Shown: positions 34,444 to 56,045, numbered from the stretch's first letter. The stretch: 64,000 nucleotides of DNA from an uncultured Acidobacteriota bacterium (GCA_963750475.1 CAVVQQ010000003.1:64958-128957), one strand, 5' to 3'. Notes: generated by a model not told the origin, from the letters alone. Numbers and translations are program-made.

Positions 34444-36337
34444 ATGAACCGCAAACCGCTGATCCTTCTTGGCGTCGCCGCCGCACTGCTCACGTTCGCC
34501 GGCACCGCGCTGACCGCCGCGCGGCCGCCGGCCGGCGACTATCTCGAGAGCGATCAAACGGCGGCCGCCGCCCCGGCGCCGGCCGCGGCCGCGCCGGCCC
34601 AGCCCGCCGCCGCCACGCCGGCCCAGCCCGCCGCCGCCACGCCGGCCGCGGACAAGCCGTATGTCGAGGCCGAGTACCCGGCGCTTCCCCGTCGTCGGCA
34701 GCCGCGTCGCCATCTGGATGGTCGCGCAGCTCCATCTGCTGTTCGCGGCGTTCGTTCTCGCGGTGCCGATCTTCGCCTTCATCGTCGAGGCGATCGGCTA
34801 CAAGACCGGCGACATGCGCTACGACCGGCTCGCCCATGAGTTCACGAAGCTGCTGTCGGTCTCCTTCTCGCTGACCGCGACCTTCGGGGCGGCGCTGACG
34901 TTCATGCTGATCATCCTGTACCCGAAGTTCACCAACTACATGATGAGCGTGTTCTCGCCGACCTTCCTGCCCTACGTCCTGCTCTTCTTCGCCGAGGCGT
35001 TCTTCCTCTACACCTACTACTACGGCTGGGGGAAGTTCCATCCGCTGGTCCATCTCGGACTCGGGCTCGGCCTCAACATCGTCGGCACCAGCATCATGCT
35101 GATCGCCAACGCCTGGCTGACCTTCATGATGTCGCCGCGCGGCGTGTCGAGCACCGGGCGCCGTCCTCTCGGTGCGGGAGGCGGTCTACAACTACACCTG
35201 GATGCCGATCAACGTGCACCGCATCATCGCCAACGTCGCCTTCGGGGGATCGATCGCGGCCGCGTACGCGGCGTTCAAGTTCCTCCAGGCGACCACCGAC
35301 GAGGAGCGCGCGCACTACGACTGGATGGGCTACATCGGCAACTTCGTCGCGATCAGCGCCTTCCTGCCGCTGCCGTTTGCCGGCTACTGGCTCGCCAAGG
35401 AGATCTACGCCTACTCGCAGACGCTCGGCCTGCACGATGATGGGCGGGGCGTTCTCGTGGCTGTTCATCATCCAGGCCGTGCTGATTGGCAATCTGTTCC
35501 TCGCCGCCAACTACTATCTCTGGCTCGGCATGGGGCGCGTCGACGGGGTCGCAGCCGCTGCAGCGCTTCATCAAGTATCTGCTCGCCGGGATCACGCTCT
35601 GCTTCATGGTCTGGGCGACGCCGCGATCGATCATCGCGACCGTGTCCGAGCTCCGGGCGATGGGCGGGTCGTCGCACCCGGTCCTCGGCTACCTCGGCGT
35701 CATGTCGGCGAAGAACACCGCCGTGAACATCCTGATCCTCACGACCTTCATGAGCTTTCTCCTCTATCGCCGGACCGGCAAGGTCGCCGCCGTGGCGTGG
35801 GCGAAGAAGGGGCACGCGGCGCAGCTCGCGATCTTCGCCGGCGTCGCCGTCTTCGTCGTCTTTCTCGGCGTCTACGGCTACTTCGTCGAGGCGACGGTCC
35901 GCATCAAGCTGTCGGTGCCGCAGGTCCTCTCGGTCCTGTTCGCGATGGTGGCGATCACCGCCATCGACCTGTTCCTGTTCCGCGGCGCGCGCAAGACCGG
36001 CGAAGTGCGCTGGGGCCGGATTCCGGCGATCTCGCAGTACGTGCTGATCTTCATCGCCGTCACCTTCACCTGGCTGATGGGGCTGATGGGCTACGTCCGC
36101 TCCGGGCTGCGCCAGCACTGGCACGTCTACGGCGTGATCCGCGACAAGTCCGCCGACGCCTTCACGCCGACGCTCGGCTTCGCGACGAAAGTCGTCTCGG
36201 TGACCGTGCTGCTGTTCTTCCTGCTGATCGCCGTCGTGTTCTGGATCGCGAGCCTGCACGACCGGCCCGACTTCGACCGGGGACAGACCGCTCGTGACGC
36301 CGCTCGTCCCTGGACCGCGGCGCAGCGAGCATCATGA
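34444..36337 (+). pseudogene. Cytochrome bd-family subunit I (CydA)-like membrane protein with about 13-14 hydrophobic helices, carrying four frame changes as sequenced
   Basis: Fragments from ORFs 34444.., 34661.., 35172.., 35377.. and 35486..36337 join into one protein. The first join reads ...KPYVEAEYPA|FPVVGSRVAIWMVAQLHLLFAAFVLAVPIF. This is followed by ...ANAWLTFMMSPRG..|GAVLSVREAVYNYTWMPINVHRIIANVAFGG. Next comes ...YAYSQTLGL|TMMGGAFSWLFIIQAVLIGNLF...LWLGMGR|..SQPLQRFIKYLLAGITL... The shifts lie at about 34685, 35155, 35433 and 35545. The helix-1 His motif (QLHLLF) resembles CydA. The stop overlaps the next start (ATGA at 36334). Confidence 0.75.
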
Positions 36338-36879
36338 GGATCCCGCACATCGTCCGCATCGCCGCGCTCGTCTTCGCGACGACCGGGTTCTATGCCTACG
36401 TCGGCCAGATGGTGCCGCAGAAGGAAGTCCAGCCTCCGCAGGAGACCGGCCATGGGCGGCGACCTGAGCCACCGCCGAGCTGGCCAAGATCGGCCGCGAG
36501 ATCATGGAGGGCAAAGGCTTCTGCCTGACCTGCCACACCATCGGCAAGACCGGCGCGCTCCGGTTTCCCGACCTCGCCGGGGTCGATGTCCGCGCCAAGA
36601 CCCGCGTCCCGGGGCTGAGCGATGTCGAGTACTTCGCCCAGTCGATGTACGAACCGACCGCCTACATCGTGCGAAGGCTTTCCCCCGGCGATGCCGCCCA
36701 TCAACAAGCCGCCGATTGGTCTGACCGACGAGGAGATCCTCTCCGTGATCGCGTACCTGCAGACGCTTGGCGGCACCGCGACCGTCACCCTGCAGACGAA
36801 ACATCACTACAACAGCGGACCCGCCGCGGGCGGGACGCCGCCGCCGGCCGCCGCGCCGCCGAAGGGGACGCAGCCATGA
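36334..36879 (+). pseudogene. Membrane-anchored monohaem c-type cytochrome, with two or more frame changes as sequenced
   Basis: The N-terminal anchor is MRIPHIVRIAALVFATTGFYAYVGQMVP. It is followed by ...TAELAKIGREIMEGKGFCLTCHTIGKTGALRFPDL...SDVEYFAQSMYEPTAYIV|EGFPPAMPPINKPPIGLTDEEILSVIAYLQTLGG. The haem motif is CLTCH, and MPP provides a distal Met. The shifts lie at about 36440-36470 and about 36672. The stop overlaps the next start (ATGA at 36876). Confidence 0.7.
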
Positions 36880-37695
36880 AGATCGCCGTCCTCGTCGCCA
36901 TCCTCGCAGTCTTCGCGCTGCTGCGGTTCCGGCGCGCGAACCTGCTGCTGTGGGCCGGCGCCTGGTGGATCGGGATCTACGTGCTGCTCCGCTTCGGCTT
37001 CACCGCGCCGATTCCCTCCTCCGTCGTCACGCTCTACATGGGCATCATTTCGATTGCCCTGCTCGCCTACGTCTCCTCCAGCGAGGTACGCCGCGACGAG
37101 GTCTCGGGTCCGCTGGTCAGGTTCATGACCGACAAGCGCTACACGGTCCTCCTCGGCGTCGCCATCGTCGCCATCCCGGCGCTCGCCGCCGCCAATGTCT
37201 ACGTCCAGATGAGCGTCCCGCTGCAGCCGCCGCTGTTCTCGCGCACGGTCCATCCCGCGTCGCCGTCCGAGATCACGGTCCACGACAAGAAGGTCGAGCT
37301 CGACGCCGGCGAGAACCCGTTCCGCCGCCTCGAGACGTCGAACCCGGCCGAGTTCCGCACCCACGTCGAGAACGGACGCCGCGTCTTCTACCGGAACTGC
37401 GTGTTCTGCCACGGCGACAATCTCTCCGGCAACGGCATGTTCGTCCACGGACTCGATCCGATCCCGACCAACTTCACCGACAAAGGGACGATCGCGATGC
37501 TGCGCGAGACCTACCTGTTCTGGCGGATTTCCAAGGGGGGACCCGGGCTGCCGGAGGAGGGCGGGCCGTGGGCTTCGGCGATGCCGGCCTGGGAGAAGTT
37601 CCTGAAGGAAGACGAGATCTGGGATGTCGTCCTCTTTCTCTACGACTATACCGGCCAGCGGCCCCGCGCGAAGGAGGAGGGGGCGAAGCCGATGA
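36876..37695 (+). CDS. Polytopic membrane-anchored monohaem c-type cytochrome (3' boundary unresolved)
   Basis: The start is ATG 36876. About four hydrophobic helices begin MKIAVLVAILAVFALL.... The soluble domain carries CVFCHGDNLSGNG...MPAWEKFLKEDEIWDVVLFLYDY. No stop exists in this frame before 38078. A TGA in the adjacent frame at 37693 overlaps a well-placed ATG 37692 (GGAGGAGGGGG upstream). I therefore place the end near 37695, assuming one more indel. Confidence 0.6.
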
Positions 37696-39414
37696 CGATC
37701 CCCTGGACGCCTGGTGGTCATGGTGGCGGCGCTCTGGGCCGCGCCGGGAGGATCGATGCGCGTGGCGGCGCAGGACGTCGGCACCGAGGCCCAGCGCGAG
37801 TCGGGCCGGAAGCTGTATCTCAAATCCTGCTCGCAGTGCCACGGCGAAAAAGGGGACGGCGAAGGATACGCCGCCCCGCATCTGCGTCCGCGGCCGCGGA
37901 ATTTCACGACCGGCAAGTTCAAGATCCGGACCACGGCAAACGGCGCGCTGCCGACGCATCAGGACCTGGTCAACATCATCAGACGGGGAATGCCGTACAC
38001 CTCGATGCCAGCCTGGCCGAGCCTTGCCGATCAGGAAGTGTCGGATCTCGCGTACTTCATCACCACTTTCTCACCTGACTTCGCCAAGCCCGAGAACGCT
38101 CCCAAGCCGGTGCCGCTTCCCGGCGCGCCGAAGGCGACGACGGAGTCTGTAGCGCTCGGAAAGAAGCTCTACGAGGAGAGCGGCTGCGTGAAGTGCCACG
38201 GCGCGCTCGGCCGCGGTGACGGGCCGTCGGCGCCGACCCTGATGGACGACTGGGGGCACCCGATCCGCGCCGCCGATCTGGCGCAGAGCTGGACCCTGCG
38301 GGGCGGATCTTCCCGCGAAGACATTTTCCGGACGATGAGCACGGGGCTGAACGGCACGCCGATGCCGTCGTTTCTCGAAGCGCTGACGCCGGAGCAGCGC
38401 TGGGCGATCACCGATTTCATCGTCTCGCTCTCGGGCGGCGACGGCCCTGGCTACGCCAATCTGGTCATCGCCAGGCACGTGAAGACGCCGATCGATCTCG
38501 GCAAAGGCGCCGCGAGCTTTGCTGACGCGCCGGTCGCACGGTTTCCGGTCGTCGGCCAGATCATGGAGCCGGGACGATCGTTCCATCCGCCGGCGACGAG
38601 CGTCGCCGTCCAGGCGGTCTACGACGCCGACTCGATCGCCCTGCTGGTGCGCTGGCACGACATGAGCGCGGAAAAGTCCGGGAAGAACGGGCCGTCGCTG
38701 CCGGTGCCGGCAGAGGAAGAGGAGGAGCCGGCGGCGGCCGCGGCGGCGGGCGAGGGGAGCAGTGCGGGCGGCTTCGGCGACGCGGAGGTCGCGGCGACGC
38801 CGGCCGGACAGGCGCCGGCGCCCGCCGCGGACCCCTTCGCCGAGGCCGTCCGCGCCAGCTGCGCCGCCATCCGAGTTCTCCGACGCTGTCGCGATCCAGG
38901 TGCCTTCGCAGGCCCTCGACCGGTGCGCGCAAGCCGTACTTCCTCTTCGGCGACGGCGAGAACCCGGTCGATCTCTGGTTCTTCGATCTGGCCGGCGCGG
39001 CGCCGCTGCAGTTCACCGGGCGGGGCAGCGGGGCCGTCGACAGCCGCCGCCGCGACCGATGTCACCGGAACCGCGAGCTACGACCAGGGGGAATGGTCGG
39101 TCATTTTCAAGCGGCCCCTGCGCGCCGGCGCGCGGCGCTCCGTTCTCGCCCGGGAGAGTTCGTGCCGATCGCCTTCTCGGTGTGGGACGGCTTCTCGCGC
39201 GAGCGCGGCAACAGGCGCGGCCTCACGACCTGGTACTCCCTCTATGTCGAGCCGGCAGTGGTGCCCTCGCCCGATCGGCCCGATGGTGAGGACGGCGGTG
39301 ATCATTCTGGTCATCGAGCTGGCGGTGATCGGCTGGGTGCGCAGGCGCTACGGATCGCGCGACCAAGGAAAGCTCGGCGCGGCGCCGAGCCACCCGGCAG
39401 CGACCGGCGCGTGA
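37692..39414 (+). pseudogene. Dihaem c-type cytochrome fused to an EB_dh (ethylbenzene-dehydrogenase gamma / DOMON-like haem-binding) domain with a C-terminal membrane anchor, carrying about seven frame changes as sequenced
   Basis: The haem motifs are CSQCH and CVKCH (ORF 37714..). The EB_dh-like segment is spread over all three frames. It reads ...SVAVQAVYDADSIALLVRWHD... / PSEFSDAVAIQVPSQAL / KPYFLFGDGENPVDLWFFDLAG..LQFTGRGSGAV / TGTASYDQGEWSVIFKRPLRAG / APFSPG / EFVPIAFSVWDGFSRERGNRRGLTTWYSLYVEPAVVPSP / IGPMVRTAVIILVIELAVIGWV. The shifts lie at about 37705, 38860, 38928, 39040, 39130, 39155 and 39260. Confidence 0.7.
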
Positions 39415-39510
39415 GCGCGCCGGGAGCGAGCGACGTGAACCGCCGCCGCCCCAGGGCGGCCGGGGCCGGCCAGGGCGGCGGGACGAAGTCCGCCGATGAA
39501 AAGAGGACCC

Positions 39511-41620
39511 ATGTACAAGAGCATCTACGTTCCCGTCGATAACTCAGACCACTCCAACCGCGCCGTCGCCTGCGCCGTCGGGCTGGGCAAGGCGTATTCG
39601 GCGAAGCTGGTCGGCTGCCATGTCTACGCCGCCAAGCTGCACGACTACCGCTTCAGGCAGATGGAGTACACGCTGCCCGAGGAGTACATCGACGAGGTCG
39701 AGCTCGAGCGGCAGCGGAAGATCCACGACAGCCTGATCACGATGGGCCTCAAGCTGATCTCCGACAGCTATCTCGACGGCATGTCGCGGCTGTGCGGAGA
39801 GTCGGGCCTCGAGTTCGAGCCGCGGATGATGGACGGGAAACATCACATCGAGATCCTCAAGGACCTCGCCGGCTCGGCGCACGATCTGGTGGTGCTCGGC
39901 GCGCTGGGAATCGGCCGCGCCCGCGACAGCGTGATCGGCTCGGTCTGCGAACGGGTCGCCCGCGAGGCCGATCGCGATGTCTGGGTCGTCAAGCACGTCC
40001 CGGAGCCGGGCGAGGCGGACCGGGACACCATCCTGGTCGGCGTCGACGGCAGCCCGCAGTCGTTCGGCGCGCTGATGACGGCCTCGATCTGGCCCGCACC
40101 TTCGGCAAGAAGGTCGAAGCGATCGCCGTCTACGATCCCTACCTGCATTACTCGGTCTTCAACGGCATCGTCGGCGTCCTCACCGAGCAGGCGGCGAAGG
40201 TCTTCCGCTTCGAGGAGCAGAACCAGCTCCACGAGGAGATCATCGACACCGGGCTGGCGCAGATCTACCAGTCGCACCTCGAAGTGGGCGAGCGGATGGC
40301 GAGCGAGGCGGGCGTCGAGATCAAGAAGACGCTTCTCGACGGCAAGCCTTTCCAGAAAATTCTCGACCACGCGCGCAAGACCAACCCGTGGCTGATCGTC
40401 GTCGGGCGGATCGGCGTGCACAGCCCGAAGGACGAGACCGGGCTGGGGAGCAACACGGAGAACATTCTCCGCGCCGCGCCCTGCGATGTCCTCCTGTCGA
40501 CGCGCCTCGAGGTGCCGCGCCTCGACGTGCGCGCCGAGGAGACGGTGCGGTGGACGCCCGAAGCCGAGGAGCGGATGACGCACGTGCCCGAGCAGGTCAA
40601 GGGGATCGCCCGCACCGGCGTCCTCCGGCTGGCGCTCGAGAAGGGGCATTCGGTGGTCACGAGCGCGGTGATTGACGAAGCGATGGATCGGTTCATGCCG
40701 AAGAGCGCTTCGGCGGCGACCAAGGCGCTGGCCGAGGCGGTCGCGCTCGAGCGGGCGAAGGCGGGCCCGGTCTCGATGTGCCGGGCCTGCGGCGTCACTG
40801 CCACGCAGAGCGGCGCCGGTGCGGTGCATCGTCTGCGGCGCCGACCGACTTCGAAGTGATCTCGCGCGAGATGATCGAGAAGATCGCCGAGGTCGAGGGC
40901 GGGCTCCAGGAGGAGACGACCTACGACGGGCGCAAGCTGCGGTGGTCGGAGGACGCCCGGAAGGGCCTGTGGACGATGAAGAACGCCTATCAGCGGCGCC
41001 GCACCAAGGCGCGCGTCGAGAAGCGCGCGCGCATGAAGAAGCTCGACGCGATCACGCTCGATTTCGCCCGCGAGGTGATCGAGGAGGAGACGGGCACGCC
41101 GCTCGACATCGTGGCTCAGGGGGCCTTGACCTCGTCGGCCGCCACATCGGCGTCGCCCGCCGGGACGCCCGCGTCGGGCTCCGCGCCGGCGCCAGCGGCC
41201 TCTGACGGCGTGAAGCTGGTGGCCCGCGACGAGCGGAAGAACCCGCTGATCTCGATCTTCGACTGGACCGACGAGGCGACGCAGCGGATCTTCCGCGTCC
41301 CGGCCGGCTTCATGCGCAGCCAGACGCAGGAGCGGATCGAGGCGCTCGCGCACGAACGCGCCGCGGCTGGCGGCACTGGCGAAGCCGGAGTGGTGATCGA
41401 TCTGGCGCTCGTCGAGGACGGGATCGAGATCGGCAAACGGATGATGGCCGAGATGATCGCGAACTACCCGTCAGCGGGCCAGGGGCACGAGAAGGCGGCG
41501 CCCGCTGCAGCGGGTCACTCCTCCTCGGCGTCGACCGCGCCCGCACAGGAAGCGCCGGCCGTGAACGGGAGCGGCTACCTCAACGAAGTGAGCGCGCTCT
41601 CGGCGCGGCGCGTCGAGTGA
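39511..41620 (+). pseudogene. Multidomain protein: tandem universal-stress (Usp) domains, a CxxC...CxxC zinc-ribbon and three PCP_red-like domains, with three frame changes as sequenced
   Basis: The start is probably ATG 39511 (MYKSIYVPVDNSDHS). Usp1 is ...LVVLGALGIGR...SVCERVAREADRDVWVV. Usp2 is ILVGVDGSPQSFGALMT|GLDLARTFGKKVEAIAVYDP...LIVVGRIGVHS...GSNTENILRAAPCDVLL. The PCP_red-like units are VRWTPEAEERMTHVPEQVKGIARTGVLRLALEKGH, LRWSEDARKGLWTMKNAYQRRRTKARVEKRARMK and FDWTDEATQRIFRVPAGFMRSQTQERIEALAHER. The zinc ribbon is MCRACG...RCIVCGA. The shifts lie at about 40080, 40815 and 40838. Confidence 0.7.
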
Positions 41621-41742
41621 CTTCATCAGCGCGTAGCAAGCGTCCGTGGAGCGAACCACGTCGGCAGGGTCAGGCTGGCGCGCCAGCGGCGCGCCGCGCC
41701 GGAGCGGAGCGGGGCGCAGGGGCCCCCGCGAGCGACGGCGAG

Positions 41743-41768
41743 GGGGGGCCGGCGGGGCGAAGCCCCCC
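41743..41768 (+). terminator. GC-rich hairpin followed by an A/T-rich tract (weak terminator candidate)
   Basis: The stem GGGGGGC pairs with GCCCCCC across a 12-nt loop (cggcggggcgaa), and the hairpin is followed by GGTAAATAAAT. It sits between the Usp/PCP_red gene and the GNAT gene. There is no canonical U-tract. Confidence 0.25.
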
Positions 41769-41777
41769 GGTAAATAA

Positions 41778-42654
41778 ATGTCCGCCTACCGGTTCTGTCG
41801 CTCGGACGACATCGGCCTGCTCGTCGATGCGCTGAATCGCTGCTGGTCGCCGTCTTTTCCCGACGAGCCGGCGATGACGCCGGCCGCGTTCAAGCGATCG
41901 ATCCGCGACCTTCAGGTCTGGTGCAGCAGCTGCATGGTCGCCTTCGCGGGCTCCGATCCGATCGGCGTCCTGATCGGCGCCAAGCGGCCGTCCGGAACCC
42001 TCGTCCACAAGATCGCCGTTCATCCGGAGCATCAGCGCCAGGGCCATGCTCGCCACATGCTCGATTCGCTCGGCGTCGAAGCTCGCGATTCTCGGCCCGC
42101 CGCGAATCAGCGCCGAAGTGCCGGAAGCCCTCGTGCCTGCCTGCGGCGGGCTGTTGCGCGCCAGCGGATTCGTCCAGGAAGCGCGCCTGACCGACTACGT
42201 ACTGCAGCATGACAATCGCGGCGATGATGAGGCCGCAGGCATTCCCGCCGGCCGGTTCGTCATCCCGGTGACCCTTGACGATCTCGCCGCCAATGGCCTC
42301 TCCGCCGAGGCTGATACCCAGGTCTGCTGGGAGCGCGCGGTCGACACCCTCATCGCGCGGAAGGAGGAGATTGCCGGGCTCGCCGTCGCCTCGGACGAGC
42401 GAATCGAGGCCTGCCTGCTGTACGTGACGCACGGGGCGGCGGCGGAGATTGTCTCGCTGCGTACCTTCATCGACGATGGCGGAGCTCGTGTGAAGCAGCT
42501 GCTCTCACGACTCGGCGCCCGGGGAATCGGCACGTTCCGCTTCCCGAAAGTGCGCCCGCCGGAAATCTCCGAGGACTGGCTCGAGACGCTCGGCTTCCGC
42601 CCCGCTGGCGGGCATCGACTTTACGCGACGACGGCGCGATCGGACCATGCGTAA
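41778..42654 (+). pseudogene. GNAT-family N-acetyltransferase (two-lobed), with one frame change as sequenced
   Basis: ORF 41778.. and ORF 42046..42654 join at ...VHKIAVHPEHQRQGHARHMLDSL|..SKLAILGPPRISAEV... (shift about 42065-42075). HQRQGHARHM fits GNAT motif A (Q/R-x-x-G-x-A/G). Confidence 0.6.
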
Positions 42655-42693
42655 GCTGGCGATTGTTCGAACGACGGCAGTCCCGGGCAGGAA

Positions 42694-43658
42694 ATGAAAA
42701 CCTACAGCGACATCGTTGGCGACGGCGGGTCCAGGGTGCTCGAGCAGGTGGCCGAGCAGCGCGCCCGCATCACGGACGGGCTCGCCGGAGTGCGCCATCT
42801 CGTTGCCGTCGGCTCCGGCAAGGGGGGCGTCGGCAAGAGCACCCTGACGCTCCATCTCGCCGGTGCCCTGCGCGCCCGGGGACTGCGCGTCGGGATCCTC
42901 GACGCCGACTTCAACGGTCCGTCGCAGGCGCGCATGGCCGGCGTCCAGGAAGGGCTGTTCGTTCCAGGCCGCGACAAGGTGGCGCTGCCGCGAACGAAGA
43001 ACGGCATCCCGGTCTTCTCGATGGGCTCGATGATCCCGGAGTCGGAGGCGCTCGAGTTCGAGAGCACGGCGCCCGGCGAGTCGCAGACCTGGCGCGCCAC
43101 CCGGGAGTTCGCGCTCCTCGGCGAAATCCTCGGGGCCTTCGAGTGGGGCGCGCTCGATCTGCTGATGTTCGATCTGCCGCCCGGGAGCCGAGCGGACCGT
43201 CCAGTACGCCGACTTTCTCGGGCCGCGGACCTCGTTCCTGCTCGTCACCATCCCCTCGGAGGTATCGCGAGGCGTGGTCGCGCGCTCGGTGGCGGCGCTG
43301 GCGAAGGGACCCAACCGGGTCCTCGGCTACGTCGAGAACATGAGCGGCTACTACTGCCGCGACTGTAACGCCGTCAAGCCGCTGTTTGCCTCGGCTGGAT
43401 CCGAGGATGCGGCAGGCGGCGCCGTCCCGCCGACCTCGCGCCAATCCCGGCTCGAGATTCCCTGCCTCGGAACCGTCCCTTTCGATCCCGAGCTGGCACG
43501 GTCACTGCGATACAGGGCTGCCGCTCGCGGACGTCCCCGACAGCCCGGTTGGCCGGGCCCTGGAGCGCGTCGCGCAGCAGCTTCTGGACAGCCTCGAATC
43601 TCCTCCGCCTCCGCTCCCGCTCCGCGCGAGCTTCGGCTCGGCAAGGAGCTCGCGATGA
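42694..43658 (+). pseudogene. Mrp/NBP35 (ApbC)-family iron-sulfur cluster carrier ATPase, with two frame changes as sequenced
   Basis: The deviant Walker A is VAVGSGKGGVGKSTLT. Further segments are ILDADFNGPS, DLLMFDLPPG|AERTVQYADFLGPRTSFLLVTIPSEVS, and the CxxC motif in ENMSGYYCRDCN. The protein continues ...GTVPFDPELAR|..CDTGLPLADVPDSPVGRALERVAQQL. The shifts lie at about 43185 and 43500. The stop overlaps the next start (ATGA at 43655). Confidence 0.85.
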
Positions 43659-44144
43659 AGTTCCTCTGTGTCCCCTGCGACAGTCCGATGAAGCTGCAGA
43701 CCGTCGAGCCCGCCCGAGGGCGGCTCGCTGTCGGTCGTCTATGCCTGTCCCGAGTGCGGCTACGAGATGGCGATGCTGACCAACGCCGTACGAGACGCAG
43801 CTCGTTCAGTCGCTCGGCGTGCGCATCGGGCCCGACATCGCCGGCGGAGCGCTGGCCGGGGCAGCGGCCGAGCCTGGCAAGTGTCCGTTCCCCGGGATGA
43901 TCTCGTCCGCGGCCCCGCAGCCCACAGGCGCCAACGGGGCGACGGAGGAAGGGCGCCCCGGGCCAGACCGACGATCCGAGCCCGGTCCGCTGGACCGACG
44001 CCGCCGAGGCCCGGCTCGCGAACATTCCCGCCTTCGTGCGGCCGATGGCGCGGACCGGCATCGAGAGGTACGCGCGCGAGAGAGGGGTCGCAGGAAGTGG
44101 ACGAGACCATCCTCGACGCGGCCCGCGACTTCTTCGGCATGTAG
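43655..44144 (+). pseudogene. Small zinc-ribbon plus PCP_red-domain protein, with four frame changes as sequenced
   Basis: The sequence reads MKFLCVPCDSPMKLQTVEP|..GGSLSVVYACPECGYEMAMLTN|..YETQLVQSLGVRIGPDIAGG...KCPFPGM...|VRWTDAAEARLANIPAFVRPMARTGIERYARERGV|.EVDETILDAARDFFGM. Successive pieces lie in frames 2, 0, 1, 2, 0 (position mod 3). All four shifts are +1, at about 43712, 43788, 43955 and 44092. Confidence 0.6.
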
Positions 44145-44207
44145 GCTGCGTTCCTGCGCGAGTCCACACGGATCTGCGCGGATTTGCACGGATTGACACC
44201 GGTCTGA

Positions 44208-45671
44208 ATGGCTGCACCGATGAACGCGACCCCGTTCGCCCGACCGTACGTCATCTCCTGGAACCTCACCTACCGCTGCAACCTTGCCTGCGAGCACTGC
44301 TATCTCGACGCCGGCGGCGCGCCACAGGTCGGCACCGAGAACTTCGCCGATCGGAGCGAGCTCGGCACCGAGGAATGCTTCAGGGTGATCGACGACATCG
44401 CCGCGTTCGCGCCCGAATGCGTGACGATCCTGACCGGCGGCGAGCCGCTCCTGCGCCGCGACATCCTCGAGATCGTCCAGCGCGCCGCGGAGCGCGGGCT
44501 CTGGGTCGTCGTCGGCACCAACGGCGTGCGCATCACGGAGAACCGTGGCGAAGCGACTGGCCGATGCCGGCGCGCGCGGCCTCTCGCTCTCTCTCGACGC
44601 GCTCGATCCCGATCGCCACGACCGGTTCAGGAACGTGCGCGGCGCCTGGCGGAACACGGTCGAGGGTGCGGAGATCCTCAACCGGACCGGGCTCCCCTTC
44701 ATCGTCCAGACGACCGCGGGCTCGCACAATCTCGGCGAGCTCGACGCCATCGCCGACTTCGCGCACGACCGCCTTGCCGCGAAGGTCTGGAACCTCTACT
44801 TCCTCGTACCGACCGGGCGCGGCCAGTTCGTCTCCGACATCACCCCGGCGCAGTACGACGACGTGCTGGCGTCGCTCTACCGGATCCAGCGGAAGTACGA
44901 CCGCCGGATGCTGGTCAACGCGAAGTGCGCACCGCACTACATCAAGACCGTACTCGAGCGCGCCCGCGGCCTGGGCGAGGGGCCGGAGGGTAGTCCCGCG
45001 GAGCGGGACCCCCGAGCGAGCGGCGGTGGCACCCGCGAGCACCGGAGGATGCCGGGCAGGCTCCCGGCCCGCCCTCGATCAGGACCTACTCCGGAGGGGC
45101 CGGTGGATGCCCGGCGGGAACGCACTACATGGGGATACGGCCGAACGGCGATGTCACCCCCTGCCCGTATCTGCCGGTCTTCGCGGGTACCCTTCGCAGC
45201 GCCAGTCTGCGGACCTGTGGACATCATCGGCGCTGTTTGCCGACATCCGCCGCCGCACCGCGCTCGGCGGCCGCTGCGGGGCGTGCGAGATGAACGGCCA
45301 CTGCGGCGGCTGCCGCGCCCGGGCGTACGGGATGACCGGCGATGTGATGGCCGAGGATCCACTCTGCACCCACATCCCCGGCACGTTCGCCGGCTCGCCG
45401 CTGCTGGCAGTCCGCGGCGCGTCCCCGGCGCCGGTCGGGCGGGACGAAGCGCCGGCCAGTGCGGGAGATCCAGTACGGTCCCGAATCGCCTCGGGCGATT
45501 GCGTGGGACGATGCCGCGGCGGCGCGCATGAAGAGGATCCCGGTGTTCGTCAGGGGCATGGTCACCACGGCCGTAGAGGAGTCCTGCCGCAAGAGCGGCC
45601 TCGACCGCGTCACCGTCGAGGAGCTCGACCGCATCCGCGCGCGGATGCCGACCCCGAAGATTTTCGGGTGA
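44208..45671 (+). pseudogene. Radical SAM / SPASM-domain enzyme (AhbD/NirJ-like tetrapyrrole-modifying type) with a C-terminal PCP_red domain, carrying five or more frame changes as sequenced
   Basis: The radical SAM cluster motif is NLTYRCNLACEHCY. Further segments are ILTGGEPLLRRDI, VVVGTNGVRITEN|.AKRLADAGARGLSLSLDALDPDRHDRFRN and ...VWNLYFLVPTGRG...NAKCAPHY. The SPASM-like part is GCPAGTHYMGIRPNGDVTPCPYLP...LWTSSALFADIRRR...GRCGACEMNGHCGGCRARAY...DPLC. The final domain is IAWDDAAAARMKRIPVFVRGMVTTAVEESCRKSGLDRVTVEELD (ORF 45459..45671). The shifts lie at about 44540, 44960-45100, 45198 and 45455. Confidence 0.8.
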
Positions 45672-45688
45672 GGCTGGATCTGAAGGGG

Positions 45689-47240
45689 ATGACTGCAATC
45701 CTGCAAAGCGCCCGAAGCGCGACAGCCCTGACGCTGATCGTGCTGGTGTGCACGGCGACAGTTGCCAGGTCGCACGGTCCGGCGGATTCCGATGCCTCGG
45801 GCGCGTCAGACAGCGCCACCGTGCCACTCGCCCCGGGCGGGGCGATCGACTCACCCGGGCCGGGCAGCGTCGTTGGCCCGTATTTCACGGTCACCGGGTG
45901 GGCGATTGAGGCTGCCGCGTCGACCGGGACAGGCGTCGACGGCGTCTATCTTTGGGCGTACCCGGCGTCCGGCGGATCAGGCATACCTCTCGGGTGGGCC
46001 GACTACGGCCGCACCCGACCCGATGTTGCCGACCAGTCCGGCCTCCGGTTCAGCAATTCGGGCTATTCGCTCGCCACCGGCATCGTCAATCCCTCGGGCT
46101 CGTACACCATCGTTGCCTACGTTCACGACACAGCGGCCGGGGGCTTCCATCAGCAGCAGGTTGTGACGGTCACGACCCAGCAGGACGCCCGGGGCGCCAT
46201 CGACCCGCCGGCGGGCGGTTTCACCGTCCCGCCGGCGTTCGCGCTGACTGGATGGGCGATCGACACCGGCGGTTTCGGGTCAGGCGTCGACGGCGTGTAC
46301 TTGTGGGCGTTCCCCTTCTCCGGCGGGGCGCCTTTTCCCGTCGACACAGCGGCCACGTATGGGCTGGCGCGGCCGGATGTGGCGTCGCAGGTACGGCAGC
46401 CGGTTCAGGAATTCGGGCTACAGCATCAACGTGGCGAGCCTGGCGCCCGGCAGGTACGTTCTCGTTCCGTTCGCCCATCCGACCGTCGGCGGTTTCGTTC
46501 AGACGCAAAGTGTCGTGGTGGAAGTGCAACTCCGTCCGCACGGGGCGATCGATTCACCCGGCCCGGACAGCGTGATCGGCCCGTGGTTCACGGTTACCGG
46601 ATGGGCGATCGAGTCCGGCGCGTCATCGGGCACGGGCGTGGACGGCGTTTACATCTGGGCGTATCCGTCCGGGGGTGGAGCCGGCATACCACTCGGGTGG
46701 GCCGACTACGGAAAGACACGACAGGATGTGGCCGGCCGGTACGGCAGCCGCTTTCTCAACTCGGGCTATTCGCTCGCCACCGGCATCGTCAATTCCTCTG
46801 GCTCGTATACCATCGTTGCGTACGTTCACGACGCACTCGCCGGAGGCTTCCATCAACAGCAGGCCGTGACGGTCAGGAAACAGCAGGATCCCCGGGGAGC
46901 GATCGATCCGCCGGCCGGCGGTTTTGCGGTCTCACCGTCTTTCACGCTTACTGGATGGGCGATCGACGCCAACAACCAACTCCCGGGTCCGGGCGTCGAC
47001 GGGGTCTATCTGTGGGCGTTTCCAGTTTCGGGCGAGCCACCTTTCGCGGTCAATTCATCCGCCGCGTATGGACTGGCCCGTTCGGACGTGGAGTCGCAGT
47101 ATGGCCCGTTCTTCAGGAATTCCGGCTACAGCGTCACTGTCTGGAACCTGCCCGCGGGCGTCTACGTCCTCGTTCCGTTCGTCCATGAGAGTCCGGGCGG
47201 CTTCTTCCGGACCCAGAGCGCCGTCGTCACGGTGCGATAG
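45689..47240 (+). pseudogene. Secreted protein made of four tandem ~115-aa beta-sandwich-like domains (A-B-A'-B'), with one frame change as sequenced
   Basis: The start is ATG 45689, followed by a signal peptide (MTAILQSARSATALTLIVLVCTATVA). The repeating pattern is GAIDxPxxGxxVxxxFTxTGWAI...GVDGVYLWAxP...YGxxRxDVxxxxGxxFxNSGYS...GxYxxVxxxH. The frame of ORF 44036.. joins ORF 46359..47240 near 46390 (...RPDVASQ|YGSRFRNSGYS). Confidence 0.7.
45838..47240 (+). repeat. Coding tandem duplication, two units of about 705 bp
   Basis: Unit 1 starts near 45838 (GGGGCGATCGACTCACCCGGGCCGGGCAGCGTC...). Unit 2 starts near 46543 (GGGGCGATCGATTCACCCGGCCCGGACAGCGTG...). By eye the units show long runs of identity, for example GGGTGGGCCGACTACGG and TCGGGCTATTCGCTCGCCACCGGCATCGTCAAT, interspersed with substitutions. 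Confidence 0.8.
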
Positions 47241-47399: not shown

Positions 47400-48527
47400 T
47401 CACCACCAGCGCTGGGCCCACACCAGCGAGACCGCGACCTGGCGCTCCCACTCCTCGTTGGCGAAGGACGTGTACGCCTCGTACCCGCCTCGCACCGTGA
47501 AGTTCGGCGTGACTCGATAGCCGAGGGTGGCTTCGGCGCTTGTCGCGGTGCGCCGGCCCGGAAACGGGCCGGTCAGGACGGGGGACGACGCGTGGACGGC
47601 GCGTCCGGCTGCGAACCACCGGGGTGTCAGGGTGCGGACCGCCTGCAGATTGAAGCCGCGCGCGACGGCAGGCGTTCCGGTCGTGTCGAACCGATCGATG
47701 ATCCACTCACCGGCAAGCCGGGTGTAGCCGATCGCGTATTCCCCCTCGAGGTTGACGACCGTGGCGCTCTCGTCAGGCAACGGAGTGCCGACCGACGAGC
47801 TGTTCACGCCGTACCCGTCGCTGTCGTAGGGAAGCGAGGCGGGTGCCAGAGCATTGTGCCGGTATCGCCCTCGCGCCACCCCCGCGCCGAACCTCAGGCC
47901 GGGCAGCGGCGTGACGCCGCCGCCCAGGACCAGCTGCGCCGCTGCCGGCTTCCGCGATCGGCTCAGCACGCTCCGCGTCTGTGCCGGCGTCGCGTCGGTC
48001 ACGCCGCCGCGCAGATCCCATCGTGCGCCCGAGGCGGTCACGATCGCGCCGAGCGGATACCCGCCCGACATCAGCCGCACGCCGTCGAAGTGCCCGTCGA
48101 ACGCCGGCAGCGGCGCGTAGTAGTAGAAAGGCGCGCCGATCGTCGGGTTGCGATCCGGCCGAAGTTCGAGAGTCGCCAGGCCGAGCGGCGACGAAATGAT
48201 TCCGGCGTCGAGCCGGACGGGCACCCGCGTCGACGATACGTAGCGCAGCTGGAGCTGATACATTTCGGCGCCCCAGTCGCCGCCAGGCAGCCGCCGCGCC
48301 CAGGGACGAATCACGACGTCCCAGCCGCGGCCGGCGCGGATCGTGCTCACCGCGTCGAAGATCAGAAACGGGTCGTTGTTCGCCTCGGATGTGACGCTCG
48401 CCGAAACGACCGCCTCCATGGCCACCCGGCCGGTCACATCCTGCGCGGCTGCCTCGGGCGCCGCGGCGGCCCCCAGCGTCAGGGCGCAGCCGAGCGCGAA
48501 GGCCGGGATGCGGGTCAACAGTCTCAT
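47400..48527 (-). CDS. Outer-membrane beta-barrel (porin-like) protein
   Basis: The start is ATG 48527 (MRLLTRIPAFALGCALTLGAAAAPEAAAQ signal). Alternating amphipathic strands end in aromatic residues (...QVAVSLVWAQRWW). The start overlaps the stop of the upstream HD-GYP gene (ATGA at 48524-48527). Confidence 0.65.
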   Translation of the reverse strand: MRLLTRIPAFALGCALTLGAAAAPEAAAQDVTGRVAMEAVVSASVTSEANNDPFLIFDAVSTIRAGRGWDVVIRPWARRLPGGDWGAEMYQLQLRYVSSTRVPVRLDAGIISSPLGLATLELRPDRNPTIGAPFYYYAPLPAFDGHFDGVRLMSGGYPLGAIVTASGARWDLRGGVTDATPAQTRSVLSRSRKPAAAQLVLGGGVTPLPGLRFGAGVARGRYRHNALAPASLPYDSDGYGVNSSSVGTPLPDESATVVNLEGEYAIGYTRLAGEWIIDRFDTTGTPAVARGFNLQAVRTLTPRWFAAGRAVHASSPVLTGPFPGRRTATSAEATLGYRVTPNFTVRGGYEAYTSFANEEWERQVAVSLVWAQRWW

Positions 48528-50219
48528 GCCCGGCGGACCCTCACCAGCACGGGAACGGCCGGAGAGTGCAGCGGTGTCGAGGCCGACAGGTCGATGTCCG
48601 GAAGCGCCGTCGCCAGCGCCTGCACCACCTCGGCGTCGAACTGCGTGCCGGCGCAGCGCCACAGTTCACGCAGGCCTTCCGCGCTCGGCCGCGCCGGCCG
48701 GTAGGAGCGGGCGCTGGTCATCGCGTCGAAGGCATCCGCGACATGGACGATGCGCGCAACCAGCGGGATCGAAGTGCCGCGCAGCCCGTGCGGGTAGCCG
48801 CGGCCGTCCGGCTGCTCGTGGTGCAGCTCGACGATCGGCAGGTGCGGCTCGAGGAACGGCACGCTGCGCAGGATGCGCGCCCCGACCTCGGGATGCTGCT
48901 TGATCATCTCGTACTCGGCGGCGGTCAGCGGCCCCGGCTTCATCAGCACCTGATCGCTGATGCCGATCTTGCCGATATCGTGCAGCAGCGCTCCGAGCCG
49001 CAGCACCTCGAGCTGCGGCTCGTCGAGCCGCAGCGATCGGCCGATCGCCAGCGACACGGCGCTGACGCGCTCGGAGTGGCCGGCGGTGTACGGATCGCGC
49101 GCGTCGAGCGCCAGCGCCAGCGCCCGAATCGTTCCGAGATAGGCGCTGAGCGTTTCCGCCTCGGCTGCCTTGACCGACTGGATCATGCTGTTGAAGGCCG
49201 CGGTGAGCGTGTCGACTTCCAGGCTGTCGCCGGTGGCAATCAACGGATGGTCGAAGTCCCGGGTTCGCGTCATGCCGGACAGCGATGCCGACAGCGTGTC
49301 GATCGGCCGCGCAATCGTCCGCGACAGCCAGATACTCGCCAGTCCGGCCAGCGCGAACGCCCCCAGCGCGATGACGCCCATCGTCCGCAAGGCGCTCCGC
49401 ACCGCCGGCCGCGACGAGGCGTCAATCGAATCGAGCACGTAGACCTGCGCGACCCCATGGTCGGCCAGCCGGCGGACGGCATACTGCGCCGCGTCGAGCG
49501 TCACCGTCTCCTGGTCGGCCATGGTCCTGAGCTTCGCGGGTGTGATCGCCATGCCCGGCGCCGACGGCAGCGTCGACGCGACGACGCGGTCGCCGGCGAC
49601 GATCAGCGCCCGGGCCCCCGACAGGTCCGACAGTTCGCGGGCATAGCGATCGTCGAACGCGCTGGCGAGGCGCAGCGTGCCGATCTCGGTGCCCTGCAGC
49701 ATCACCGGCACCGAGGCGATCTGGAAGACCCCCGAAGGGGTCGTGACGACGGCGTTGTGGCTGCCGGGAGGCGCGTCGGCGGCGGCGTCGAGCCAGCCGT
49801 CAGCGAGGCGCCCGGCGACCGCCAGTGGACGCCCGTACCTGATCGCGCACTTCGAGCACGTCGGGATGAATGCCGGCGGCGAGCTTGTCCAGTTCACGCG
49901 TGATGGTCTTGACGAGATCGTCCCGCGCGGCGTCGGTCGTCTGCAGCTCGGTCTGGTACGTGTCCAGCGCCGCCTTCAGCGTGGAGTTCTCCGCGAGCAT
50001 GGCGACCTGCGCCCGCAGCTCCCGGCCGCGCCGTTCTTCGAGCGCGCCGAGCAGCCGCTGGCCGGTCTCGAGCTTGTCGACCACGCCGGCCCGCACCCGG
50101 TCGCTGACGTTGAGGGTCGCGACGAGGAGGACCGCCGACAGCACGAACGCCACCGTCGCCAGCGTCGCCACCAGCGTGCGGGTGACGAAACGGGGAGGCG
50201 TGTGCGTGCCGCGCGCCAT
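48524..50219 (-). pseudogene. Membrane-bound HD-GYP-domain c-di-GMP phosphodiesterase with a periplasmic sensor and a HAMP-like linker, with one frame change as sequenced
   Basis: ORF 49800..50219 holds the N-terminal TM helix and sensor. It joins ORF 48524..49897 at ...IHPDVLEVRDQ|YGRPLAVAGRLADGW (shift about 49840). A second TM helix (VIALGAFALAGLASIWL) is followed by the HD-GYP signature GHSERV...LHDIGKIG...HHEQPDGRGYP. Confidence 0.85.
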
Positions 50220-50918
50220 CTACCGCTCCATCACCGGCAGGGAAAATTCGACCCGCGCCTCTTCCCCGGCGGCAACCGTCACGGAGCGAGTCGTCTCGCC
50301 GATCCGCTCGTGCCATGCGCTCAACCGGTAGGTGCCGGCGGGGACGGCCTCGATCGCGAAGCGCCCATCGCCGCCCGGCGTCGCGTAGAGGCGGTGGTCG
50401 AACACCATGATCGTGGCGGCCATCTCCGAGTGGATGTGGCAGTAGACTTTGATGACCCCGGCGCGCGGAAACGTCCGTTCGCGCTTGTCGCCGCTCCGGA
50501 ACCGCCCGAGGTCGAAGGTGGCGCCGCGCGACAGCGAGAACACGTTGTGGAAGTAGGGGTCGAAGTTCGGGAACTCGATGGTGGAGTCGCGGGTGATGGC
50601 GGTGACCCGCGGCACGAACGCCTCGTCGCGCTGGCTGATCGAGGCACGGGTCGCCGGAAGGTTCGTCTGGCGTGGCGCGTCCTTGACGAACACCACGACG
50701 TTCGCGATCTCGGCTGCCGCCGGCGTCGTGCGGTTGACCTGCCGCGAGGGGTAGGCCCCCGAGCGCAGCGGTGTGCCGGACAGTGCCGTCAGGTGCACGA
50801 GGCCGGTGATGCGTCCGTAGGGCTGAGCCACGCGGCCCACCGCCGGCTGCGCCACGGCGAGCGTGCAGGTGACGGCCACCAGGGCCAGCACCGGTCGAAA
50901 TGACACACGGAAAAACAT
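50220..50918 (-). CDS. Secreted cupredoxin-like (amicyanin-type ligand pattern) protein with a C-terminal beta-sandwich (paralog 1)
   Basis: The start is ATG 50918, followed by a signal peptide. The type-1-copper-like ligand pattern is FHNVF...YCHIHSEM (H...C-x2-H-x2-M). The C-terminal segment is DGRFAIEAVPAGTYRLSAWHERIGE. The stop abuts the HD-GYP start with a 0-nt gap. Confidence 0.6.
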   Translation of the reverse strand: MFFRVSFRPVLALVAVTCTLAVAQPAVGRVAQPYGRITGLVHLTALSGTPLRSGAYPSRQVNRTTPAAAEIANVVVFVKDAPRQTNLPATRASISQRDEAFVPRVTAITRDSTIEFPNFDPYFHNVFSLSRGATFDLGRFRSGDKRERTFPRAGVIKVYCHIHSEMAATIMVFDHRLYATPGGDGRFAIEAVPAGTYRLSAWHERIGETTRSVTVAAGEEARVEFSLPVMER

Positions 50919-51169
50919 AATCGTAATTACTTCCCCTGATCCAGGGGGTTCCGGCGGCCGTGGTGCCGATTGCGTGCCAGGGGGAGCCCGGCACGCGCCA
51001 CGGCCCGCACACACACGCCGCGGACATCGTTCGGGCAGTCGAGGGATCGAGGGCGGGCGGCGGGAGAATCAATACGGGTCGACGGTCGGCTGCACGGCTT
51101 GGTGATCGCCCCCGGGCCGGGTCGGCGCGGGTGAACCCCTGGACCGGGGACGGTCCCAGGGGAACGAGG

Positions 51170-51715: not shown

Positions 51716-51913
51716 GGATGTGCTCTCCGTGATGGATTCTGTCGGCGTCATCCGGCCAGCGCTTCGAGCAGATCCGGCGGGGATCCGCGTCACGCTGGCG
51801 ACGCCAGACGCGCTCTATCGTCTGAAGCGGAAGACCGTCCGGCCCCTCGATCGGCAGGACGCCGCGGCGCTGCGGGAGCGCTTCGGACTCGACGGAGGAG
51901 ACTGACCGGCTGA

Positions 51914-51939
51914 CCGTCCGCGGTTGACCCGCGGGACGG
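51914..51939 (-). terminator. Strong GC hairpin just downstream of the oxidase subunit II gene (terminator candidate)
   Basis: CCGTCCGCGG (51914-51923) pairs with CCGCGGGACGG (51929-51939). This gives 10 bp with one bulge and a 5-nt loop. It lies 19 nt past the ctaC stop codon. There is no U-tract. Confidence 0.35.
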
Positions 51940-51957
51940 GAACGAAGCAGGCGCGGG

Positions 51958-52759
51958 CTATCGGAAGATGTCCGATTCTCCCTTGAGCTTCTCTTCTTCG
52001 TCCGCCATCCATTTCTGGAACTCCTCGGCGGTCTGGACGGTGACGAAGCCGCGCATCCGGTAGTGGCCGAGGCCGCAGAGCTGGGCGCAGGCGATCTCGT
52101 ACTGGAACTCGGCGTTCCCCGTCCGGGCCCGCATCTCCTCGGTCGTGACGTCGGGAACGAACCAGATGGGGATCGTCAACCCGGGGACGGCGTCCTGCTT
52201 GACGCGAAACTCCGGCACGCCGAAGCTGTGGATGACATCCTTGCTCCGCAGCCTGACGATCACCGGCTGGTTGACGGGCAGATAGAGCTGATTGAGCGTC
52301 GTGATGTCGTCCTTCGCCGGCGGGATCCGAGCGGTCGAGCCCGAGCGGGTTGGTCTGGAGGTCGATCAGGCTGATGTCCGTCCGGCCGAACGTCCCGTCC
52401 GGCCCGGCATAGTGGACGTTCCAGGCGAACTGCTCGGCGGTGACCCGAACGACCAGCGCCTCGCTCTCCGGCGGCATGCGGTCGACGCGCGCCGCCCAGA
52501 GCGGGACCGAGAACGCGAACAGGAGAATCGCTTCGATCACGGCGACGCCAATCTCCGAATAGCTCGAAGCGTGCGACTTGACGCCGGTGTAGTCCGCCAC
52601 CGGGTGGCGCGATCGGCGGAAGCGGAACAGGATGTAGGCGAGGAACGCTCCCCAGCCGACGAACAGGATCAGCATGAACACGTGCATCCAGCCGATCAGG
52701 CTGTCGATCTGCGCGCCGTGAGCCGAGGCGAGCGGCGGGAGTCCGAGCCATTCAGTCAT
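51958..52759 (-). pseudogene. ctaC: Haem-copper (aa3-type) cytochrome c oxidase subunit II with a CuA site, with one frame change as sequenced
   Basis: ORF 51815..52897 and ORF 51958..52263 join at ...LGLDRSDPAG|KDDITTLNQLYLPVNQPVIVRLRSKDVIHSFGVPEF (shift about 52320). There are two TM helices. The CuA ligands are in HSF...CAQLCGLGHYRM. The start is taken at ATG 52759 (MTEWLGLPPLASAHG), but the frame stays open upstream. Confidence 0.85.
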
Positions 52760-53562: not shown

Positions 53563-53567
53563 GCCGC

Positions 53568-54164: not shown

Positions 54165-54236
54165 TCACCGAGGGGCTGTGCCCCTCGGACTCCCCGGCAC
54201 GCGCCCGCGCTCGCTGACGGTTTCTGCATAAGCTCC

Positions 54237-56014: not shown

Positions 56015-56045
56015 GCAGCTGTTCTCCCGACGTCTGGTTCGAGGG

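Follow-up and report, generated by a model that had tools for sequence, protein, structure and literature searches.

In Proteobacteria the hemN gene, which encodes an oxygen-independent radical SAM enzyme of haem synthesis, adjoins the genes of the cbb3 terminal oxidase (cco/fix). Homologues of AhbD have been found in coproporphyrin-pathway organisms devoid of the other Ahb enzymes, and have been proposed there as the anaerobic coproheme decarboxylase (PMC13564367); HemQ, a marker of the coproporphyrin pathway, has been reported in Acidobacteria and Planctomycetes (PMC5095920). The PCP_red domain (Pfam PF08369) occurs at the C-terminus of DPOR subunit B (BchB/ChlB), part of an Fe-S enzyme acting on a tetrapyrrole; a substrate-contacting trans-acting helix (BchB 398-420; PMC12022308) and a C-terminal helix that lies over the substrate cavity (PMC12022308, PMC4071322) have been described in DPOR, the Pfam domain itself not being described. 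Here we analyse a stretch of 64,000 nucleotides (the window) from an uncultured bacterium of the Vicinamibacteria, Acidobacteriota (GCA_963750475.1, CAVVQQ010000003.1:64958-128957), in which three neighbouring genes, encoding a radical SAM/SPASM enzyme, a tandem universal stress (Usp) protein and a small zinc-ribbon protein, share five PCP_red domains and lie, together with the gene of an Mrp-type ATPase, in an operon of cytochrome bd-like and cytochrome c genes.

The radical SAM/SPASM/PCP_red enzyme belongs to a sister clade of AhbD/NirJ2 and is predicted from its sequence to be catalytically active. The explanation that we favour, with a probability of roughly 0.45, is that it is an oxygen-independent Fe-tetrapyrrole enzyme, most likely a coproheme decarboxylase (coproheme to haem b), which works with lineage-specific helpers and feeds low-oxygen respiration. 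The three proteins and their PCP_red copies are:

39511..41620, plus strand: Usp-Usp-PCP_red-zinc ribbon-PCP_red-PCP_red protein (Usp domains 75 and 53.7 bits; orthologues of about 704-717 aa).
40545..40694, plus strand: PCP_red copy 1, in the Usp protein (PF08369 35.3 bits, model positions 1-44).
40937..41080, plus strand: PCP_red copy 2, in the Usp protein (PF08369 17.1 bits, E=0.006).
41258..41470, plus strand: PCP_red copy 3, in the Usp protein (PF08369 29.7 bits, model positions 1-31 only).
43655..44144, plus strand: small protein (about 148 aa) with a zinc ribbon, a conserved AMLTNxxETQxVxSLGV segment, a variable linker carrying KCPFPGMI, and PCP_red.
43985..44135, plus strand: PCP_red copy 4, in the small zinc-ribbon protein (PF08369 54 bits), split by a frameshift at about 44086.
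44208..45671, plus strand: radical SAM (CNLACEHC, GGEP) + full SPASM + PCP_red enzyme (PF04055, PF13186, PF08369).
45498..45647, plus strand: PCP_red copy 5, at the C-terminus of the radical SAM enzyme (PF08369 51.3 bits).

PF08369 recognises each of the five copies that a preliminary description, made from the sequence alone, had placed in these proteins (40545, 40937, 41258, 43985 and 45498; start positions refer to the W-core, [VLFI]xW[TSD]xxA, with which the copies were located). The scan proposed in that description put copies 1, 4 and 5 above the gathering score of 32.5 bits and copies 2 and 3, taken alone, below it: copy 2 is divergent, having no PxF(V)R (the intact L002 orthologue reaches 21.4 bits), and the model covers only part of copy 3 because a Gly/Ala-rich loop is inserted there. 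The intact Usp-protein orthologue shows three PCP_red stretches, 63.7 bits summed. The literal motif reported to recur five times matches only the copy at 43985, and the domain cannot be called rare in this architecture, since the Radical_SAM + SPASM + PCP_red layout is common to more than 7000 database proteins. No sixth copy was found in the six-frame translation of the window with a hidden Markov model built for this analysis; therefore the clustering of the five is not due to chance. In alignments, the PCP_red domain of the small-protein orthologue matches the very C-terminal end of ChlB/BchB (2ynm_D 477-529, E=3e-6; 2xdq_B 459-510) and the stand-alone PCP_red structures 2l09 and 2kru, a homology of about 50 residues with the motif W...A...P.FVR...E..A. 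The locus resembles DPOR subunit B in joining PCP_red to an Fe-S enzyme, presumably acting on a tetrapyrrole here; in contrast to DPOR there are no nitrogenase-like domains, the modules joined to PCP_red are radical SAM, Usp or zinc ribbon, the organisms are non-phototrophic, and a second PCP_red subtype (VPAGFMR) exists. This subtype ('VPAGFMRS' in copy 3) is distinct and conserved as VPAGFMR[DS]xTxxRIE, being also present in the Usp-PCP_red proteins of other lineages (L159, L117, L167, L029).

The reconstructed radical SAM protein was 89% identical to the best database matches, and identity across the Vicinamibacteria matches was 75-90%. In a homologue search covering 1.84 billion representatives, relatives at 40-48% identity, from anammox bacteria, Nitrospinota, Nitrospirota and Binatia, also end in PCP_red (1-4 copies). 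The tetrapyrrole type suggested for the enzyme agrees with the NCBIfam ranking (AhbD TIGR04545, 300 bits; NirJ2, 282; TIGR04053, 263; all below their own cut-offs), the peptide maturase models scoring at most 134 bits. This AhbD/NirJ2-first pattern is repeated by the Brocadia and Nitrospirota members. Scores remain below the AhbD equivalog cut-off of 500 bits (P0064, 300.4; Brocadia P0305, 343; Nitrospirota P0321, 301), yet the sequence behaves like the family, which points to a variant of an AhbD-type system. On a rough neighbour-joining tree of the radical SAM enzymes, the PCP_red-bearing ones form a single clade of their own, whose nearest relatives without PCP_red are AhbD/NirJ2-like. With AhbD/NirJ2 the enzyme shares the CX3CX2C + GGEP core and a full SPASM domain with two auxiliary clusters; CX3CX2C, GGEP and the seven SPASM cysteines (C18, C22, C25, G71-P74, C265, C283, C321, C324, C330, C333, C351) do not vary among 45 sequences, with identities as low as 38%. 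It differs from them in its score below 500, its separate clade, the 1-4 C-terminal PCP_red domains, its dedicated Usp-PCP_red, zinc-ribbon-PCP_red and Mrp partners and the lack of AhbA/B/C nearby.

The AlphaFold (AF2) model of a radical SAM orthologue (mean predicted local distance difference test score, pLDDT, 80.4; predicted template modelling score, pTM, 0.84) adopts a SPASM radical SAM fold with a confident core, followed by a disordered linker (367-389) and a three-helix PCP_red domain (390-444, pLDDT 78-90). Its top structural matches in the PDB are PqqE, SuiB, SkfB and anSME; no AhbD or NirJ structure was found by sequence search in the PDB copy used. A maturase of ribosomally synthesised and post-translationally modified peptides (RiPPs) was rejected as candidate, the best maturase model scoring 134 bits against 300 for AhbD, and the enzyme does not fall among the RiPP SPASM enzymes, a grouping that the preliminary description had considered. 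Its Pfam domains are limited to Radical_SAM, SPASM and PCP_red, with no RRE domain found, and no conserved small open reading frame (ORF) that might encode a precursor peptide was noticed beside the enzyme gene in the loci inspected, where no dedicated small-ORF search was made.

The locus is not free-standing: it constitutes the accessory half of a respiratory operon, and this cytochrome bd-like/cytochrome c context is the best clue to its function. The remaining genes of the operon are:

34651..35391, plus strand: CydA-like subunit (N-terminal haem-binding half, cytochrome bd subunit I), first gene of the operon (PF01654 72.7 bits).
35437..36337, plus strand: second membrane subunit (orthologues of about 305 aa, without a Pfam match).
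36504..37700, plus strand: cytochrome c (CxxCH; PF13442 45.7 bits, PF00034 42.5 bits; orthologue match 36905-37681).
37714..39414, plus strand: dihaem cytochrome c with an EB_dh (haem-b-type) domain (PF00034 89.9 bits, two stretches).
41778..42654, plus strand: GNAT acetyltransferase with an extra C-terminal half (PF00583 23.9 bits).
42694..43658, plus strand: Mrp/NBP35/ApbC-type P-loop Fe-S carrier ATPase (PF10609 108.6 and 45.1 bits).

The order is thus CydA-like, membrane subunit, cytochrome c, dihaem cytochrome c/EB_dh, Usp-PCP_red, GNAT, Mrp, zinc-ribbon-PCP_red and radical SAM-SPASM-PCP_red. In another Vicinamibacteria locus (L013) the nine frames from CydA-like to radical SAM are intact and closely spaced, most of them abutting or overlapping, which is consistent with one operon. 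Across 80 Vicinamibacteria loci, Mrp, small PCP_red and radical SAM genes occur together in all but one of those with enough flank, and in most loci the entire order is preserved, a COX operon following downstream in the opposite orientation. A promoter/terminator scan gave results no better than those for shuffled sequence, and no tRNAs were found in the window. The EB_dh domain, weak in the window, reaches 56.9 bits in the intact L013 orthologue. The second membrane subunit, probably a CydA'-type partner, is present in the Vicinamibacteria loci wherever the flank extends far enough upstream (its ORF overlaps the CydA-like one in L013); the membrane-subunit matches in other lineages share the reading frame of the CydA-like hit and are not an independent detection. 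In a possible likeness to the OR-C/OR-N families of bd-like oxidases, the CydA-like protein matches the N-terminal haem-binding half only (the intact orthologue, L013:542-1489, scores 90.2 bits on PF01654, over model positions 2-208 of 418) and is followed by a membrane subunit and by cytochromes c with CxxCH; the difference is that the haem c domains are here separate proteins, one of them with an EB_dh domain.

The set recurs in other genomes searched, where its neighbours include bd-like oxidase, cytochrome c and HemY genes. The order in Nitrospirota (L085) is CydA-like, membrane protein, cytochrome c, dihaem cytochrome c/EB_dh, Usp-PCP_red, radical SAM and HemY; in Nitrospinota (L084) the small PCP_red and Mrp genes diverge from Usp-PCP_red and radical SAM, a molybdopterin/FeS/CydA-like/cytochrome c cluster lying a few kb off; in Scalindua (L087) the radical SAM gene diverges from a Rieske/cytochrome b/multihaem/CydA-like operon; and in Binatia (L088) a dihaem cytochrome c/EB_dh gene is followed by Usp-PCP_red and then radical SAM. 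For counting, 80 metagenome loci were grouped into 23 enzyme clusters at 65% identity and neighbours were counted per cluster. A CydA-like (Cyt_bd_oxida_I) gene lies within 10 kb of the enzyme gene in 7/23 clusters, in two different gene orders, against a chance expectation roughly estimated at 1% per cluster; the alternative order, seen in metagenome loci, is Mrp, small PCP_red, Usp-PCP_red, radical SAM, CydA-like, cytochromes and COX1, and in L121, L123, L130 and L168 the CydA-like gene comes right after the radical SAM gene. Four further clusters have phmmer matches to the dihaem cytochrome c/EB_dh query, the EB_dh domain being confirmed in the only one checked (Binatia, L088). A HemY homologue adjoins the enzyme gene or lies within 1 kb of it in five clusters (L111, L152, L156, L159, L162; in L156 the other neighbours are a cytosine methyltransferase, an unknown protein and a PvdO/FGE-like protein), and the HemY directly 3' of the enzyme in L085 scores 304 bits on TIGR00562 (cut-off 98). 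Seven clusters, Brocadia included, have no CydA-like, EB_dh or HemY neighbour, the flanks inspected consisting of unrelated genes. The gene set adjoins bd-like oxidase or haem-synthesis genes in about half of the sampled lineages; no ahbA/B/C gene was seen within 10 kb of the enzyme gene in the loci inspected. The arrangement parallels hemN-cbb3 in placing a radical SAM enzyme, oxygen-independent and of haem synthesis in that case, beside a terminal oxidase cluster, but HemN is not of the SPASM family, its substrate is coproporphyrinogen, the oxidase belongs to another superfamily and PCP_red partners are absent.

Across phyla, conserved gene pairs and natural fusions support the proposal that the PCP_red proteins share involvement with one enzyme. 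In L084, L085, L086 and L088 the Usp-PCP_red gene abuts on or overlaps that of the enzyme, and it is the latter's standard immediate upstream partner in at least six distant lineages, so the fusion to Usp is not the unusual one it had been taken for. The small PCP_red gene directly follows Mrp, often overlapping it, in all loci with Mrp but one. Enzymes with 2-4 PCP_red copies come mostly from lineages without a separate small protein, and thus behave like a gene-fusion link. In the window the Usp protein is 92% identical to the intact L002 orthologue over frames 1, 3 and 2, and both Usp domains exceed the gathering score of PF00582 (24 bits); domain 1 shows the G-x2-G-x9-G-S/T motif, readable as GALGIGRARDSVIGS, and domain 2 has a spacing of x10, from which the tandem-Usp protein is predicted to be of the ATP-binding type. 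Mrp and GNAT genes lie between the PCP_red genes, as had been noticed. The former encodes, as had been supposed, an Fe-S carrier of Mrp/NBP35 type, which scores well above the PF10609 gathering score of 27.1 and carries the deviant Walker A GKGGVGKS and CRDC; it shares the P-loop, the CxxC motif and PF10609 with MrpORP/ApbC/NUBPL, but with MrpORP (NF041136), its top NCBIfam model, it reaches 154.6 bits against an equivalog cut-off of 450, and it differs in the PCP_red gene that follows it. GNAT is limited to Vicinamibacteria-type loci (absent from L084-L088), because of which it is probably not core to the gene set and was rejected as a core member.

The small protein carries the motif [KGR]CPFx[AG]M[IVML] in its variable linker (window about 43880-43905) in 94/104 orthologues, all of them Vicinamibacteria-type (L001-L168); the motif is absent in the other lineages that keep the PCP_red partnership. 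It resembles haem-regulatory Cys-Pro motifs, a likeness that we take as a lead only. Short public gene calls (50-98 aa) that bear the name 'PCP reductase family protein' (P0389-P0475) match the C-terminal half of the small protein at 80-87% identity. They probably begin at the Met of CPF..M or after frameshifts in the G+C-rich linker, so that public annotation often lacks the zinc-ribbon half. A profile search with the PCP_red domains alone gave 399 candidates, mostly such 50-98 aa calls resembling a truncated small protein, which left the architecture survey uninformative.

In the mechanism that we propose, the enzyme would act on an iron tetrapyrrole without oxygen, most likely decarboxylating coproheme to haem b, as AhbD does, in organisms that follow the coproporphyrin-dependent pathway, and haem would thereby be kept available to the adjacent cytochromes and oxidases under oxygen scarcity. 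The Mrp-type ATPase would load the three [4Fe-4S] clusters of the enzyme. The PCP_red domains, which would derive from the C-terminal end of DPOR subunit B, might serve as a common docking or tetrapyrrole-handling module, through which the tandem-Usp protein (ATP-binding) and the small zinc-ribbon protein would associate with the enzyme; the CPF motif of the small protein may serve in the uptake of the haem product. We tie the gene set to haem synthesis because of AhbD homology and HemY neighbours, and to low-oxygen respiration because of the bd-like oxidase/cytochrome c operons and the tandem Usp; a regulation by low oxygen is inferred. Where no oxidase is nearby the enzyme stands alone among unrelated genes, which fits a general biosynthetic enzyme. 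It is the reviews on AhbD homologues, the distribution of HemQ and these genomic ties, taken together, that make the conversion of coproheme to haem b the favoured reading.

The domain layouts of the three PCP_red proteins were found as had been described, but none of them is an intact ORF in the window (G+C about 68%); the preliminary description, partly supported overall, missed these frameshifts as well as the bd-like operon context. None of the Usp, GNAT, Mrp, small-protein and radical SAM genes is intact here, their orthologues elsewhere being intact. The frame paths, obtained by tblastn with intact orthologues against the window, are 1-3-2 for the Usp protein (at least 2 frameshifts, and probably also a short frame-1 stretch at the zinc ribbon), 3-1 for GNAT (1 frameshift, near 42075), 1-2-3 for Mrp (2 frameshifts), 2-3-2-3 for the small protein (at least 3, including the one inside PCP_red copy 4) and 3-1-3-2-3 for the radical SAM gene (at least 4). 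The CydA-like gene runs through frames 1, 2, 3 and 1, the dihaem cytochrome c/EB_dh gene is frameshifted near 38.7-38.9 kb, and so is the COX operon (COX2-COX4-COX3-COX1; 51.9-56.5 kb, minus strand). At least 19 frame switches were counted, concentrated in the two respiratory operons, 34600-47240 (plus strand) and 51900-56500 (minus strand); codon-position G+C phase and long intact ORFs indicate clean sequence below 34 kb, at 47.4-51.8 kb and above 56.5 kb. All five readable junctions are single-base insertions or deletions outside long homopolymer runs, and the reconstructed proteins are 80-93% identical to their orthologues, a similarity equal to that between orthologues. Since the related genomes, moreover, are mostly long-read metagenome-assembled genomes, unpolished long-read assembly error in conserved regions is more likely than true pseudogenes; the nearest loci, at about 80-85% DNA identity, are too distant for calling individual sequencing errors. 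Selective pseudogenisation of both respiratory operons in this genome may be the alternative cause.

Several points weigh against the favoured reading. The function of PCP_red within DPOR is not established in the DPOR literature covered, its physical role here being conjectural, and the substrate-contacting helix BchB 398-420 precedes the Pfam PCP_red domain (about 459-529). HemY needs oxygen, which makes it an unexpected companion of an enzyme that would work without it, and ferrochelatase, UroD and ChdC were not found beside the HemY-linked copies. The substrate of the enzyme could differ from that of AhbD, because of the score of 300 against a cut-off of 500 and the separate clade. Finally, with its frameshifted genes the set may be non-functional in this organism.

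This last point would carry furthest if there were no functional unit at all, the genes being neighbours by descent alone and decaying pseudogenes in this genome; the frame switches concentrated in two respiratory operons between apparently intact flanking genes would fit, as would the linkage of GNAT and the COX operon only within Vicinamibacteria. Gene pairs, fusions and neighbourhoods that recur in distant lineages in varied orders, the 75-90% identity of the enzyme across Vicinamibacteria, and window proteins as orthologue-like as orthologues are mutually, with junctions resembling unpolished long-read error, make this the least credible of the alternatives. An unlikely but more serious one is dedicated cofactor maturation, in which the enzyme would convert haem b or coproheme to a modified haem solely for the OR-C/OR-N oxidoreductases, the PCP_red proteins and Mrp forming a maturation/insertion complex. 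It would explain the tight packing with CydA-like genes in Vicinamibacteria (overlapping ORFs in L013), the survival of the association under changed order, where CydA-like comes next after the radical SAM gene, its recurrence in Nitrospirota, Nitrospinota, Scalindua and Binatia, and the separation of the clade from AhbD; the relatives NirJ and AhbC do other side-chain chemistry (PMC7242693), and the OR-C/OR-N enzymes are uncharacterised (bioRxiv 10.1101/2021.01.16.426971; PMC10839748). However, about half of the clusters have no bd-like gene within 10 kb, some enzymes being alone among housekeeping genes, HemY adjacency favours the general haem pathway, and there is no evidence for an unusual haem in OR-C/OR-N enzymes. 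Somewhat less likely again is its boldest form, in which the radical SAM-PCP_red enzyme with the Usp, zinc-ribbon and Mrp proteins would make or insert a non-standard haem for OR-C/OR-N by a new tetrapyrrole-modifying reaction, PCP_red being a portable hand-off domain shared with chlorophyll biosynthesis.

The location in respiratory operons, and the likeness of the CPF motif to haem-regulatory Cys-Pro motifs, would also suit a haem chaperone or insertase, the radical SAM and PCP_red proteins binding finished haem and passing it to the membrane oxidase. HemW offers a precedent for a radical SAM-like haem chaperone (PMC13495026). We regard this as improbable: the family is of the SPASM type with two auxiliary clusters, not HemN/HemW-like, all catalytic motifs are invariant, the nearest characterised relatives are true enzymes, and the CPF motif is confined to Vicinamibacteria-type proteins. 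The lack of the motif in other lineages that retain the partnership argues against the modification of a residue of a PCP_red partner (e.g. the CPF Cys) with PCP_red as recognition handle, to which we give even less weight. A partner protein with a conserved Cys motif is indeed encoded next door, and the structural neighbours PqqE, SuiB, SkfB and anSME are peptide- or protein-modifying SPASM enzymes, but no solved AhbD/NirJ structure could compete with them in the fold search; the peptide maturase scores are less than half of those of AhbD/NirJ2, and neither an RRE domain nor a precursor peptide (no dedicated small-ORF search) was found.

The preliminary description knew of no characterised pathway of this composition, and literature searches on PF08369/PCP_red, on bd-like oxidases with radical SAM and on anammox with AhbD likewise found no paper describing the architecture or the gene set; 'radical SAM' is absent from the main text of the paper defining OR-C/OR-N (Murali, Gennis and Hemp 2021; bioRxiv 10.1101/2021.01.16.426971). 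The gene set is widespread yet unstudied. It is carried by soil Vicinamibacteria, by nitrite oxidisers (Nitrospirota, Nitrospinota) and by anammox bacteria, environmentally dominant groups with many haem proteins. Little is known of the way in which these organisms produce haem and deliver it when oxygen is low, and their cytochrome bd-like OR-C/OR-N oxidases have never been characterised. For these organisms the set offers a testable candidate, either for a final step of the coproporphyrin pathway that requires no oxygen or for a cofactor step dedicated to bd-like oxidases. It also suggests partners, namely the tandem-Usp protein, the zinc-ribbon protein and Mrp, for which no requirement is known in any AhbD studied. 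It would also be the first non-photosynthetic context assigned to the PCP_red domain.

Right after the radical SAM gene, at 45680-47240 (plus strand), lies the gene of a protein whose N-terminus resembles a signal peptide and which contains four tandem repeats, each of about 110 aa (GAIDxPxxG...TVTGWAI...GVDGVYLWAYP...); it has no Pfam match and no tandem repeat at the DNA level (TRF), is also frameshifted, and was not seen 3' of the radical SAM gene in two Vicinamibacteria loci (L001, L002). The respiratory region is flanked by an intact HAMP/HD-GYP protein (48524-49897, minus strand) and a PAS/histidine kinase/receiver hybrid (29478-31487, plus strand), possible regulators, with no evidence of linkage. 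In L001 (20041-21356), a truncated HemY-like gene and a gene for ferrochelatase lie about 9-10 kb beyond the radical SAM gene, past COX/alternative complex III genes. Small CarboxypepD_reg/fn3_3 proteins flank the COX operon of the window (50223-51068 and 56049-56966, both on the minus strand) and recur in bd-like, Rieske/cytochrome b and COX clusters of another Vicinamibacteria (L002 21319-21467), Scalindua (L087 346-1116, 8458-9171) and Binatia (L088 1618-2424), where they may be an unrecognised periplasmic subunit.

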